Positions 3,506 through 20,767 of a DNA stretch of 41,610 nt are shown here, one piece after another. The first letter of the stretch is position 1. Every line of letters begins with the position of its first letter. The notes beneath the pieces are model-generated. The model searched no databases, was not told the origin of the DNA, and was given only the letters and a program-made list of their open reading frames with translations. The translations under genes and the position numbers were made by a program. Source of the DNA: a virus (Duplodnaviria; Heunggongvirae; Uroviricota; Caudoviricetes); IMG/VR virus record IMGVR_UViG_2537561977_000020. One strand, 5' to 3'.

Positions 3506-4255
3506 TCAGATCAGATCGGTGTAGTAGGTGAAGTTGCCAAACTGCGGATGTGTCCAGCGCTTGCGGTTACCTTTCGGCGGTGTCGATTCGTTTAACAGCT
3601 TTTGAGCTGCTTGTTCGATCGCTGGGAGGTTAACGAGCAATCCCCGAACACCGGTGTCTGAACGTACCGGTATACTGGCGAAGCCGATCAATTTCCGGCA
3701 TGTTGAATCAGATAAACCTGTTTTCCATGCTGCTTTGCTGACGGGGACATATTCACCTTCAACATGAGGTAAATTCGCTGGTGCTGCGGGTTGAGAATAG
3801 CCGGTTGCGTCCAGACAAGCTTTCATCGTTGCTTCTGCAACGACTCGAGCAAGTTGGACGATGCCGTCGTTGATCTGAATTTTGGGTGTGGAAGGATGGG
3901 TAACAAGCGGTTGTACTTTACCTGTTTCCAGCTCACGCCAGCGCTTAACTACTTTATACCGGTCGTGGGCGCTATAACCAGTTACAAGCGTTGTGGAAAG
4001 GTCCTGATCGAGTAGTATTTCATCAATGACTTCGCGACCATTATAGATCTTCCTTTTGACTAAAAAGTCTTTATTTTCATGATGGTACATTTCTGTACTA
4101 TGAAAACCCAACTGCTCAAGAAGTGCTTTAATATCGCGCACGACTATTTTATGTTCTTTGCTGGTAAGTTCTGCAATCTCGCGACTGCTCATCATCGGTT
4201 GCTTACCAGTGCCTGCTAGTGTTAAAGTTCTTTCGGACATTGAAGTGTTCTCCAT
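3506..4255 (-). CDS. Rha-family phage regulatory protein (antirepressor-like)
   Basis: N-terminal MMSSREIAELTSKEHKIVVRDIK resembles Phage_pRha domain. Confidence 0.6.
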   Translation of the reverse strand: MENTSMSERTLTLAGTGKQPMMSSREIAELTSKEHKIVVRDIKALLEQLGFHSTEMYHHENKDFLVKRKIYNGREVIDEILLDQDLSTTLVTGYSAHDRYKVVKRWRELETGKVQPLVTHPSTPKIQINDGIVQLARVVAEATMKACLDATGYSQPAAPANLPHVEGEYVPVSKAAWKTGLSDSTCRKLIGFASIPVRSDTGVRGLLVNLPAIEQAAQKLLNESTPPKGNRKRWTHPQFGNFTYYTDLI

Positions 4256-16963: not shown

Positions 16964-16990
16964 GTTGACTCCTTTTCTGTCATTGATGAT

Positions 16991-17051
16991 TACAGATACT
17001 TCTGTATTTGACAAACAAGGTTGCCTGTGAGGTAATTACAAGTAAACCTGT
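16991..17051. promoter_or_regulatory. OR-like operator/promoter region between cI and cro
   Basis: Palindrome TACAGAtactTCTGTA (16991-17006), TACAAGTAAACCTGTA (17036-17051), TTGACA (17008-17013) with 17-bp spacer to GGTAAT. Confidence 0.5.
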
Positions 17052-17070
17052 AATAATGAGGGCTTACTCA

Positions 17071-17298: not shown

Positions 17299-19445
17299 AT
17301 GTCTGATAACAAACCATGGGGAGCTACGCCCGATGAGTGGTTCCACTTCGATCTGGTGTTGGGGATGACAGACAGGCTTTTACCTGTGGTGTCCAATCCC
17401 TGTGCAGAACTGTCGCCTAATAGCAAGCTTTCTCATAATTTTGGCAAAACTCCCTGTCGCTACAATGGCCAACGTAAGGTTGTTGGTATCCCCGACTGGG
17501 CTAACTATGTTGTTACGGAAAACGATTTTGCCCGGTGGTCGAACGAACCCGATTACGGTATTTGCGTTCGTACTGGCGACGGGGTGGTGGCTCTGGACTG
17601 CGATATCAATGACGCCGGGATGCAGGAGATCGTACGCAATATTATCCTGTCATGCCTGGGGGAACTTCCGCCACGTCGCTGGCGGGCTGACAGTCATAAA
17701 TGCCTGTACCTGATTGCTGTTGATGGCGACTACCGTAAACGTGGTCACCGCCTGGAAGGCGAAAATAAACAAATAGAGCTGCTCGCTAAGGGCCAGCAGT
17801 TTGTGGCTTGTGGTACCCATCCGGCAGGCGAACGTATTCAGTGGGACTGCGGTTTGCCCGGCGAACCTCTGAAAATTACATCTGAACAGCTCGAAAGCCT
17901 GTGGCAGCGCCTGGCGGATAACTTACCCGTGAAAGACAGCTATACCGCAGGTGCGGGACGTCAGCGTGACCTTTCCTGTGTCGATCCTTCCGCGACAGAT
18001 GATGTCGCCGACTGGCTTGACGCGAACGGGTGGACTCTGTCGGTCAGCTCTGATGGTTCCCGCAATCTGAAACCGTTTCGGGATGAGTCAGAATACAGCA
18101 ACGGTTGCAGCGAAACATCCATTAAGTATTTCCCAAAAGGGACGGGGGGATTTGAACAGGGACATTTTAAAAGCATGCACAACACCGATGCGGGGCTTAC
18201 TGATGCCGACTGGCTGGAAGGCTACGGCTATACGCAATCTCTGTTCGAAGATCTCACGGTGGCTGAAGATGGCGATAAGCCTGAATTTACCGATATTAAT
18301 ACAGATATGACAGCCCATTTTCTGGAACGCTTTATCTACGTCATCGAGGGTGACCAGGTATGTGATCTTAGCCGACCGCCATATCAGTGCATGATGGATA
18401 TGAAGTCGTTCAAAAACCTGATGGCGCCTTACCAGTTCCCGCCAGAAGGGAAAGGGCAACCAGTCCCCGCAACCAAACGGTGGATAGAGCACCGGCATAA
18501 GAAGATTGCTGAGACGACAGGCTATAAGCCCGGTGCGGGACGTATTATCGAGCGTTTCGACGGGCGGTTTGAAATAAACGAATTTTATATGCCTGAGCAT
18601 CCACGTACAGCGGATACAAGTAAGGTGTCCACGTTCCTTAATCATATGGCGTATCTGGTACCTGATGCCTGGCAGCGCGAGTTTTTCATCGCCCGTCTGG
18701 GATGGATGGTTCAGCGTCCGGAGCGTCGATGCCCGATTTCTATTCTGCATGTGGCTACCGCACATGGTACGGGCAGAGGATGGGTCAGCCAGTTAATGGA
18801 GCGCGTGCTCGGCCCGTGGAACTGTGCTCGTACTCGCATGAAGATCCTGTGCGATAACCAGTTCCATGACTATCTGTACAATACGCTTCTATGCACCATT
18901 GACGAGGTGCGCGAAAACGATAAGCGGTATGAGGTGAACGATAAGATCCGTGACGTGCTGACAGAACCACGGTTTGAAGTGAACCGCAAATATGGCAGCA
19001 AAAAACGATGGATATATACACCGGCTTTCTGTTCTACACCAACCACTTTGATGCGCTGGCGCTGCCAGAGGAAGACCGACGTATAGCTGTGCTGGGGGGC
19101 CCTGACTTCGCCGCAACTGAAGAGCATTACGCCAGCCTGTACGGTGCGCTAAGCGACAGCGACTTTATCGCCCAGGTGTACTGGTATCTGATGGGCGTTG
19201 ACCTGTCTCGCTTTAACTGGCAGCGCGCCCCCGAGACGAAAGAACGCCTTCTGATGATTGAAAGCAATAAGAGCGATGTGGAGGCTGCTCTTACTGAAAT
19301 CCTGGATAATCCGCCTGTACCAGCAATGACTTATCAACAAATTGTTAACGCAATACTGGCAGAAGCAGGAATGGATGTAGAAATTAACCAGAAGCACATA
19401 ACAAAGCTATTGCGAGAAAAACAAAAAGGCAGCCAACAGATTTAG
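17299..19445 (+). CDS. prim-pol type DNA primase with D5-like C-terminal region, frame-broken
   Basis: Prim-pol motifs VVALDCDIND and ELLAKGQQFVACGTHP; track ORFs 17299..19086 and 19008..19445 joined by -1 shift at A6 run 19000-19005. Confidence 0.55.
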
Positions 19446-19564
19446 TAAAAATTGACGGAATGGGTTATCGCTTCTGGATACTTGCAAAAAATTGCGACTT
19501 CAATAATGAGGAATTGCGCGAAATATATAAAACTTGCGAAATTTTGCAATCTGGATTGTAAAAA

Positions 19565-19825
19565 GGTAACAGTAAGGTAACAGTAAAACGACTAACTGTT
19601 ACCTTGAAAATATCAATAAATTCACATGGATAACTAAAAAGGTAACAGGTAACAGTAGTATTTAGTTTATATACGCGAGACTTTATATTATACGTACTAT
19701 ACCTGCGCATACGTATATAGAACTAAAAGTAACTGTTACCTGTTACCCAAAACGGGGTTAAGCCTTATGTGGCGCTCCCTACAGGAGGTAACAGTTAGCT
19801 ATTTATCTGTTACCTTACTGTTACT
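19565..19825. repeat. iteron array flanking AT-rich core (putative replication origin or regulator-binding array)
   Basis: GGTAACAG at 19565, 19576, 19641, 19648, 19787; inverted CTGTTACC at 19596, 19733, 19740, 19807 (+ partial 19819); AT-rich core 19660-19725 with ATACGTAT palindrome. Confidence 0.55.
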
Positions 19826-19876
19826 TCAACAATAAACTTGCAGAAAACTGCAAATAGCTAAGTGGAGTAAACAAAC

Positions 19877-20296
19877 GTGCAAAAAATACAAGTTTCAAAA
19901 ATGATAGAAAATGAAACAGCGGAACCGGGAGAAGCATCCACGGCCATACGTTCAGTGGAAGCCGAGACAACCCGAAGGTTTTGGGTCGTAGAGCCCATTA
20001 TTGACAGGGACCAGACTCCTGCAGGTGAGGTTTTTTGGTTTCGCAGGGTGATTGCCTGGGCTGTTGTTCTTGAGCAACTGGAGGGTTTCTCACCGGTTTC
20101 TGCGGTACGTCCGCTTGCTCTGGATAGCGATCTGGGTCAATTGGAGGTTTCCCACGGCAACGTTGTTGAGCTGGAAGATATTCCAAAGGGCGCGACACAC
20201 ACCTCCCCGGAGAAAATAGCATCTCGCAAACTGCCTGATGGGTTAGAGATGTCGTTAGACCTTGCGGTAAACGAGTTCTTCTTCCCTGTTGGGTGA
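19877..20296 (+). CDS. hypothetical protein
   Basis: 139-aa ORF (GTG 19877; alternative ATG 19901); no family recognised. Confidence 0.35.
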   Translation: MQKIQVSKMIENETAEPGEASTAIRSVEAETTRRFWVVEPIIDRDQTPAGEVFWFRRVIAWAVVLEQLEGFSPVSAVRPLALDSDLGQLEVSHGNVVELEDIPKGATHTSPEKIASRKLPDGLEMSLDLAVNEFFFPVG

Positions 20297-20344: not shown

Positions 20345-20767
20345 ATGCGCAGAGATATGCAACTTGTTCTGGAGCGGTGGGGGCGATGGGCCGCGAGCGA
20401 GGAATACTGTTCAATGGTTGACTGGCCTTCGATGTCGGTGATTCCTCAACGCGTAACCGCCAGTGGCAAACCCGGTTGCTCCGACGAGGACGGAGCCGCA
20501 ATTGACACCTGCATCGCCCACATGAGCATGGTGTGTCCGCATGACGACTTGCTGGTTCTTGGCCTACGTTTCATCGGCGGCTTTTCTACGCGCTCAATCG
20601 CTGAATCTGTGAATCGTAGCCACCTTAGCGTCAGAACATCGCTTAGAGCGTCAGAGGCATTTCTTGAGGGAGCGCTGGTGCTCCAGGGAATTCGACTGGA
20701 TATGGACCCTGAAGTTGCTTTACCTGAAAAGGTTGTGTGCGCACAAAAACATGTGCTATGGTTGTAG
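20345..20767 (+). CDS. Q: late-gene antiterminator Q-like protein
   Basis: N-terminal QLVLERWGRWAA and C-terminal GIRLDMD resemble recalled small Q-family antiterminators; located just before terminators and lysis genes. Confidence 0.5.
   Translation: MRRDMQLVLERWGRWAASEEYCSMVDWPSMSVIPQRVTASGKPGCSDEDGAAIDTCIAHMSMVCPHDDLLVLGLRFIGGFSTRSIAESVNRSHLSVRTSLRASEAFLEGALVLQGIRLDMDPEVALPEKVVCAQKHVLWL

Follow-up and report, generated by a model that had tools for sequence, protein, structure and literature searches.

A mirror-symmetric iteron array next to a PrimPol-DUF5906 gene as the probable replication origin of Eru10-type lambdoid prophages

Gene neighborhood of the array

The 41.6-kb stretch of viral DNA analyzed here (called the window throughout) contains a dense array of short repeats. 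Upstream of it lie genes encoding a CI-like repressor (HTH and S24 peptidase domains), a Cro-like HTH protein and a PrimPol-DUF5906 protein, here named Rep. Downstream come a small ORF (19877-20296), Q (20345-20767), and then the holin and endolysin genes, with the terminase genes ~3 kb from the array, past the lysis cassette. The original prediction had put the array between the primase gene and the Q region, and this placement stands except that the small ORF intervenes before Q. No O or P homologues were found between cro and Q. Both the window and its relatives, which are phage isolates of 33-43 kb, encode Q, holin, endolysin, Rz and terminase.

Two features of this neighborhood were recorded in passing. 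The small ORF is a swappable cassette, encoding 139 aa in the window and 96 or 76 aa in close relatives (5600-5890 in L001 and 3481-3711 in L003); no Pfam, NCBIfam or PHROG match was found, and the type of ORF present is independent of the repeat class described below. The cI-cro intergenic region (16985-17060) carries operator-like palindromes with the pattern TACAG-N6-CTGTA (TACAGATACTTCTGTA and TTACAAGTAAACCTGTAA are examples), which are unrelated to the array repeats.

In the Eru10 replication region of Stx phages, the only products encoded between cI and stx besides Cro are a PrimPol (PF09250) protein and Q (PMC8951638). In gene content, the window agrees with this description as published, which is the level at which the two were compared. 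The paper that defines Eru10 names genes only and mentions neither an origin nor iterons (PMC8951638). The module is present in 46 of the 5426 complete E. coli genomes, every time as a single copy in a chromosomal prophage, and its carriers in the phage collection are four uncharacterised phage isolates only. In E. coli JNEC-KY171 (L007, 4552-5787), the cI-cro-rep-ori-Q module lies directly upstream of the stx2b A and B subunit genes. A decayed prophage copy was seen in E. coli VL7S7 (L009, 2916-3613), where IS1A truncates the 3' end of rep and displaces the origin region.

Organization of the array

Across the window, 14 occurrences of the 8-mer GGTAACAG/CTGTTACC were counted; dinucleotide-preserving shuffles predict 0.96, and no shuffle gave more than 4. 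Nine exact copies fall within 19565-19814, and a tenth site, CTGTTACT at 19817-19824, is degenerate with one mismatch, although the corresponding site is exact in the relative L003. These counts uphold the dense iteron array of the original prediction, and its division into five direct and five inverted sites, its 11-bp spacing (19565/19576) and its overlapping pairs were all found as described, with one of the ten copies being degenerate. The coordinates and strands of the sites and of the surrounding features are collected in Table 1.

Table 1. Features of the rep gene and of the adjoining repeat array (positions in the window)
Feature	Position	Strand	Description
rep	17299-19561	+	PrimPol, DUF5906 (SF3-type) helicase and predicted C-terminal winged-helix initiator
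Rep C-terminal ~115 aa	19215-19558	+	Predicted winged-helix origin-binding domain
Specificity segment KRQPTDLVKIDGMGYRFW	19424-19477	+	Putative; end of helix 3, loop and beta-hairpin wing
Left outer triad	19565-19603		Sites 19565-19572 (+), 19576-19583 (+) and 19596-19603 (-); centre spacings 11 and 20 bp
Left spacer	19604-19640		AT-rich; no mirror on the right side; poorly conserved except AAATCAAT-like bases
Left inner pair	19641-19655	+	Overlapping sites GGTAACAGGTAACAG (starts 19641 and 19648), offset 7 bp
Central core	19656-19732		77 bp; 71% A+T; presumed unwinding element
Mirrored core boxes	19661-19675; 19712-19727		TTTAGTTTATATACG; CGTATATAGAACTAAA
Core palindrome ATACGTAT	19709-19716		
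Right inner pair	19733-19747	-	Overlapping (starts 19733 and 19740, offset 7 bp); mirrors left pair; inverted repeat I2 (27-nt arms, 85% complementary)
Right spacer	19748-19786		GC-richer; contains conserved box GCCTTATGTGGCG (19762-19774)
Right outer triad	19787-19824		Sites 19787-19794 (+), 19807-19814 (-) and 19817-19824 (-, degenerate CTGTTACT)
Palindrome TTGCAGAAAACTGCAA	19838-19853		Just outside the array, within the next ORF's leader; direct-repeat family D2

The centre-to-centre gaps between successive sites are 11, 20, 45, 7, 85, 7, 47, 20 and 10 bp. The five site pairs are all centred on 19694-19695, and the array therefore forms a 260-bp mirror, a property absent from the original prediction. 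Its plan is an outer triad, an overlapping inner pair and the AT-rich core, followed by the same elements in reverse, with site directions of + + - + + in the left arm and - - + - - in the right arm, so that at least two sites per side are opposed. The symmetry was recovered by a repeat finder as inverted arms of 39 nt and 27 nt, the former (inverted repeat I1, 87% complementary) corresponding to the mirroring of the left triad by the right one. When the whole window was scanned, the extended motif AGGTAACAGT was found in the array only.

The core has an A+T content well above the 49% of the window, and only 24 of the 4154 tiles are equally AT-rich. Alternating purine/pyrimidine steps are also unusually frequent in it (0.67, with 9 of the 4154 tiles as high). 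An AT-rich segment of ~65 bp with a palindrome had been proposed here; the AT-richness and the palindrome are both present, but the segment is longer than stated.

Several further elements were observed in and around the array. Five lone copies of GGTAACAG lie outside it (12599, 29908, 35006, 36706 and 37704), somewhat above the ~1 expected per window; all are unpaired and lack the extended consensus. In the right spacer, the box GCCTTATGTGGCG shows conservation in E. coli, Klebsiella and some other lineages and has no mirror partner in the left spacer. Palindromes resembling TTGCAGAAAACTGCAA, of the TTGC-N8-GCAA type (ACTTGCxAAAxxTGCAA), bracket the array at 19482-19497, 19534-19549 and 19838-19853. 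The first two fall inside the 3' end of rep, and the sequence of the right-hand copy, which may lie outside the origin, follows the type of the downstream ORF and not the repeat class. A bracketing palindrome was flagged on the minus strand as a weak terminator-like hairpin. A search of Rfam gave no match at threshold, the one chance match being to a CRISPR repeat model (22 bits against a gathering score of 38). A coding reading of the array was rejected, as the overlapping ORFs at 19452-19580 (+) and 19465-19710 (-) have no family matches and are unannotated in all relatives.

The rep gene and its product

Pfam identified a Prim-Pol domain (PF09250) and DUF5906 (PF19263) in Rep, which also matches phrog_1156, annotated as “DNA primase.” Only NrS-1 chains were retrieved in a PDB sequence search, among them 6k9c, the helicase region of the NrS-1 primase (E 4e-8). 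NCBIfam gave no matches for Rep or its neighbours.

In the window, rep is split into ORFs 17299-19086 and 19008-19445 and a third-frame tail that runs to the TAA at 19559-19561, the first array site starting 3 nt past this stop codon. Over these three frames, tblastn showed the gene to be collinear with its intact counterpart (753 aa) in Escherichia phage vB_EcoM-689R2; it is likewise collinear with the intact gene (754 aa) of a 99.5%-identical E. coli prophage, L002. Three A-runs, at 19000, 19417 and 19636, are one A shorter in the window than in L002, and it is the losses at 19000 and 19417 that split rep into three frames. These frameshifts could be homopolymer sequencing errors or a true inactivation of the initiator; unless the indels are sequencing errors, the window's copy of rep may be non-functional.

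The last 115 residues of Rep were modelled from a 28-sequence alignment with a mean pLDDT of 86.8. The model is that of a winged helix, with elements in the order helix, strand, helix, helix, beta-hairpin, helix, and the residues of the tail that vary between relatives map, in the model, to the wing and the adjacent loop. Fold searches with the tail returned generic winged-helix matches only, with no specific homology to the DNA-binding domains of P4 alpha or SaPI Rep.

Many enterobacterial “VapE domain” replication proteins (P0046, P0050 and P0057-P0120) were found to share the PrimPol N-terminal ~44% with Rep. Their identity to the Rep N-terminus reaches 98%, and a VapE-type (PF05272) C-terminal half replaces DUF5906. 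This exchange of C-terminal halves provides evidence that initiators have shuffled domains.

Conservation of the array in relatives

Orthologues of Rep were taken from Izhakiella, Serratia, Arsenophonus, Xenorhabdus, Erwinia, Limnobaculum, Klebsiella and several metagenomic contigs. In all relatives examined (24 loci from at least eight genera, including Escherichia, Klebsiella, Serratia, Izhakiella, Erwinia, Arsenophonus and Xenorhabdus), the array lies directly 3' of rep, starting 3 nt after the stop codon, and the gene order is invariably cI-cro-rep-gap-small ORF-Q. The region is an annotated intergenic gap of 314-317 bp in all eight annotated relatives, so the repeats are not coding there; a coding location in related phages would have spoken against the original prediction.

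The comparison with related phages that had been suggested showed the ten-site layout to be kept across genera. An alignment of 16 lineages placed the ten sites, those of the left outer triad included, in register and showed GGT..C.G to be nearly invariant in each of them, apart from a few degenerate copies. The spacers drift while the sites hold their position, and the core boxes TATATACGCGAGA and ACGTATATAGA are kept across the Enterobacterales lineages. Positions 4-5 of the 8-mer behave differently: they are uniform within a locus, bar occasional degenerate copies, and differ between loci. The natural variants number eight, namely GGT-AA/GA/GT/GG/TG/AG/TA-CAG and GGTGACGG. Besides the three E. 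coli classes described below, orthologue loci have the cores GGTGACAG, GGTGTCAG, GGTAGCAG and GGTTGCAG, and the Limnobaculum repeat, ATGACACAG, is more divergent. In Xenorhabdus bovienii (L093, ~4120-4220), a second and unrelated repeat set, GTAACAACC/GGTTGTTAC, with at least five copies on both strands, was seen right after the GGTGTCAG array.

A pattern scan of viral contigs returned 120 matches, mostly due to chance, and uncovered 30 contigs with real arrays, the eighth variant GGTTACAG among them. In ten cases out of the 30, found in unrelated viral contigs, the array immediately follows the 3' end of a large ORF, none of these ORFs being a close orthologue of Rep. DUF5906 was detected in eight of the nine such ORFs scanned against Pfam, the ninth (L102) having Toprim only, and the N-termini carry PrimPol/PriCT_2, NrS-1 HBD or BT4734 domains. 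Where these proteins match Rep at all, they are 20-24% identical to it, and most of the distant proteins keep a K-x-x-G-x-x-x-R-x-W wing motif. Most of the distant arrays likewise keep overlapping inner pairs around an AT-rich core, a pair like that at 19641-19655 being present in distant DUF5906 loci. The scan also returned five contigs (L103, L125, L140, L205 and L209) with 6-9 GGTAAC sites within only ~125 bp and no large adjacent ORF; these compact sets may be a different repeat element or partial origins.

Covariation of the repeats with the C-terminal tail of Rep

Between the window and phage 689R2, the flanks are ~95% identical and the intergenic region only 73%, and each GGTAACAG copy of the window is replaced in 689R2, at the same position, by GGTGACGG or GGTGACAG. 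The eight annotated E. coli relatives fall into three repeat classes on one common ten-site layout. The class GGTAACAG goes with the Rep tail motif ...QPTDLVKIDGMGYRFW..., the class GGTGACGG with ...EPVRVKIDGFVYRIW... and the class GGTGGCAG with ...EAVKLKVDGMTVRMW.... Outside the tail, the Reps of these three classes in E. coli prophages are 98-99% identical, and where near-identical relatives have different repeats, their Reps diverge solely in an 18-residue C-terminal wing segment. Near-isogenic E. coli variants differ only in the ten sites and in about ten wing residues.

The association extends beyond E. coli. Serratia Reps are ~68% identical to the E. coli Rep, yet the two have both GGTAACAG and a ...T[DE]LVK..G[MI]GYRFW tail in common. 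When 21 loci were compared, a one-residue insertion in the wing segment was found in six of the six GGTAACAG loci and in none of the 15 others. Over all locus pairs, which come from phylogenetically related loci, identity in the 18-aa segment predicts a common repeat class with an AUC of 0.77, whereas identity over the remaining ~400 aa of Rep that were compared does not (AUC 0.53). Distant lineages can combine dissimilar wing segments with one core, so segment identity is an imperfect predictor; as read from these sequences, the protein-DNA “code” is degenerate between distant lineages. We regard the covariation of repeats and wing as a strong association, not as proof.

Identical CI (WP_000567468), Cro (WP_000016208), Q (WP_001244506) and downstream-ORF (WP_000034494) proteins occur with different repeat classes, and therefore none of the four is the specificity partner of the repeats.

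Comparison with known replication origins

The layout of the array matches that of PICI and SaPI origins, a type validated by experiment (PMC6092414, PMC9371898). In a plasmid maintenance assay, the pri-ori fragment of the PICI EcCICFT073 supported replication (Fillol-Salom et al. 2018, PMC6092414). As in the window, this origin lies immediately 3' of the initiator gene, and its short iterons form two groups that flank AT-rich DNA. The 8-mer GGTAACAG is similar to the EcCICFT073 iterons, GGTAGACAG/CTGTCTACC, some of which form overlapping or adjacent pairs. The EcCICFT073 Pri-Rep has D5_N, DUF5906 and Pox_D5 domains, of which DUF5906 is common to Rep with its PrimPol N-terminus, but BLASTP finds no similarity between the two proteins (E = 5). 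The core is 8 bp in the window and 9 bp in EcCICFT073, and the strict ten-site mirror with a 77-bp core contrasts with an irregular array around an AT stretch of ~35 bp. A PICI is moreover a satellite of 10-20 kb without its own lysis genes and most virion genes, whereas the element in the window is a complete temperate phage that encodes Q, lysis proteins and terminase.

The SaPI Rep proteins (SaPIbov1, SaPI1 and SaPI5) are self-loading, SF3-like hexameric helicases, fused to a primase in SaPI5, and their C-terminal winged helix recognises 6-12 iterons located just downstream of rep (PMC9371898). The iterons are divided equally between the two sides of an AT-rich centre, in opposed directions, and one hexamer has been proposed to load per side (PMC9371898). 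SaPIs differ from the window in being Gram-positive satellites with penta- or hexanucleotide iterons in place of 8-mers. No sequence similarity between them and Rep was detectable in the PDB sequence search, and no SaPI match appeared in the fold searches.

With lambda ori, the array has in common its setting in a lambdoid early-right operon under CI/Cro control and the combination of iterons with an AT-rich region. The lambda origin, however, lies inside the O gene and P recruits the host DnaB, whereas the array in the window is intergenic, O and P genes are missing, the AT-rich region has iterons to its left and to its right, and Rep carries its own helicase and primase. The alpha protein of satellite phage P4 reportedly combines a primase, a helicase and a C-terminal winged-helix origin binder in one polypeptide, and is said to recognise octameric iterons, TGTTCACC, which can be compared with CTGTTACC. 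Its primase is said to be of the Toprim/DnaG type, and P4 reportedly needs a second iteron cluster, crr, kilobases away. In the window only PF09250 and DUF5906 were found, making the primase a PrimPol and not a Toprim enzyme, and no second cluster of the crr kind is present in the 41.6 kb, which contain five lone 8-mers without flanking consensus. An origin of the P4 alpha/ori-crr type was ruled out on these two grounds.

The SF3 initiators of eukaryotic viruses, SV40 large T antigen and papillomavirus E1, assemble as two hexamers on short, partly overlapping sites arranged as a palindrome beside easily melted DNA. They use another origin-binding fold, and their sites are central instead of flanking the AT-rich element.

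DnaA boxes (TTWTNCACA) had no match in 16 origins, as expected for a self-contained initiator. A DnaA-dependent iteron plasmid origin of the RepA/pi type was rejected, since no such boxes stand beside the iterons and the unwinding element. Neither a full IHF consensus nor GATC clusters are conserved across the same 16 origins, and WATCAA cores occur inconsistently.

Alternative explanations for the array

A mirror of 260 bp could also extrude as a stem-loop or cruciform that Rep would recognise as a structure, instead of binding ten duplex sites. Such an origin has a precedent in pRN1, whose ORF904 has the PrimPol-SF3-winged-helix architecture of Rep (the winged helix being predicted in the latter) and whose origin, also directly 3' of the gene, is proposed to be a stem-loop of ~100 nt (PMC4234260). 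A single strand of the array does fold as one long hairpin of -55.9 kcal/mol (z = -9.1, equalled in 0 of 200 shuffles), but the strong hairpin potential arises because the repeats are mirrored. Complementarity is limited to the repeats and a ~15-bp box by each inner pair and does not extend to the 45-47-bp spacers. For a hairpin it is enough that sites 1 and 10 match each other, as well as 2 and 9 and the further pairs inward; a single 8-mer that is common to all ten sites, same-strand neighbours included, and tracks a protein segment is not required. The pRN1 element is in addition defined by its structure, with low sequence conservation and no iterons (PMC4234260), whereas ten copies of an 8-mer define the one in the window. 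We therefore consider recognition of a structure in place of sites to be unlikely, while noting that a stem-loop is compatible with an iteron origin and could add to it.

The original prediction had itself offered a regulator-binding array as an alternative, in which an operator or roadblock bound by a dedicated regulator, or by Rep, controls the small ORF and Q and so gates the late genes. The array does lie in a transcribed rep-Q gap without a plus-strand terminator, and Rep bound to ten sites could impede read-through. However, no plus-strand sigma-70-like promoter or terminator was found in 19400-19900, the cI-cro operators belong to an unrelated motif, the neighbouring regulators and the downstream ORF are uncoupled from the repeat classes, and in contigs with quite different downstream genes the arrays still follow Rep homologues. 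Gene control as the primary function is thus quite improbable, although a secondary roadblock effect of bound Rep on read-through to Q is conceivable. Centromere and pac/cos sites, too, can contain arrays of short repeats in direct and inverted orientation with AT-rich DNA between them, and a similar array could on general grounds serve partition or packaging. No ParA/ParB-type genes are adjacent, however, the terminase genes are set apart by the lysis cassette, the repeats covary with the Rep tail and not with CI, Cro, the downstream ORF or Q, and all 46 E. coli occurrences are chromosomal prophages, which together make a partition or packaging site highly improbable.

A probable origin for a self-loading initiator

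The position of the array 3' of rep, the conserved layout and the covariation of the 8-mer with a segment of Rep favor the iteron-type origin of the original prediction. We consider it very probable (about 0.85) that the array is the replication origin of a lambdoid temperate prophage with an Eru10-type module, and we propose that its sites are recognised through the winged helix of Rep. By analogy, the best reading is an origin for a self-loading initiator of the kind proven in the PICI and SaPI satellites, in this case carried by a true phage.

We infer from these comparisons that Rep would bind, load as hexamers, melt the DNA and prime it. The winged helix would recognise the 8-bp sites mainly via its beta-hairpin wing and the loop that follows helix 3. 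Each half-origin would comprise five sites (the outer triad plus the overlapping inner pair), the halves being mirrored around the 77-bp core. One Rep hexamer might then self-load on each side without DnaA or a separate loader, on the model of the SaPI and PICI Reps. The AT-rich core would melt, the helicases would travel outward, and with both strands primed by the PrimPol domain, replication would be bidirectional.

A more tentative reading, which we consider rather doubtful, has two parts. The first is that the wing and the 8-mer, at its positions 4-5 (and 7), make up a recognition code that is simple and evolvable, the eight variants then being mutually orthogonal initiator/origin pairs. 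If this were true, the variants would be replicon-specificity groups among co-resident lambdoid phages and PICIs of the same origin plan, and the code would decide which element is replicated, or hijacked, by whose Rep. The second is that, as transcription from the early promoter can reach Q only through the array, occupancy by Rep might time the expression of late genes, and in Stx2b phages that of the toxin, relative to replication.

This reading assigns a concrete origin and a likely mechanism of initiation to the Eru10 replication type, including that of an Stx2b-converting prophage. It also places a PICI-type origin outside the satellites, in true phages and next to many divergent primase-helicase initiators, most of them with a detectable DUF5906, and this bears on the ancestry of satellite replication modules. 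The concerted switching of sites and wing offers a natural series of matched initiator/origin pairs, and the near-isogenic variants could be used to learn how winged helices read DNA and to build orthogonal origins.
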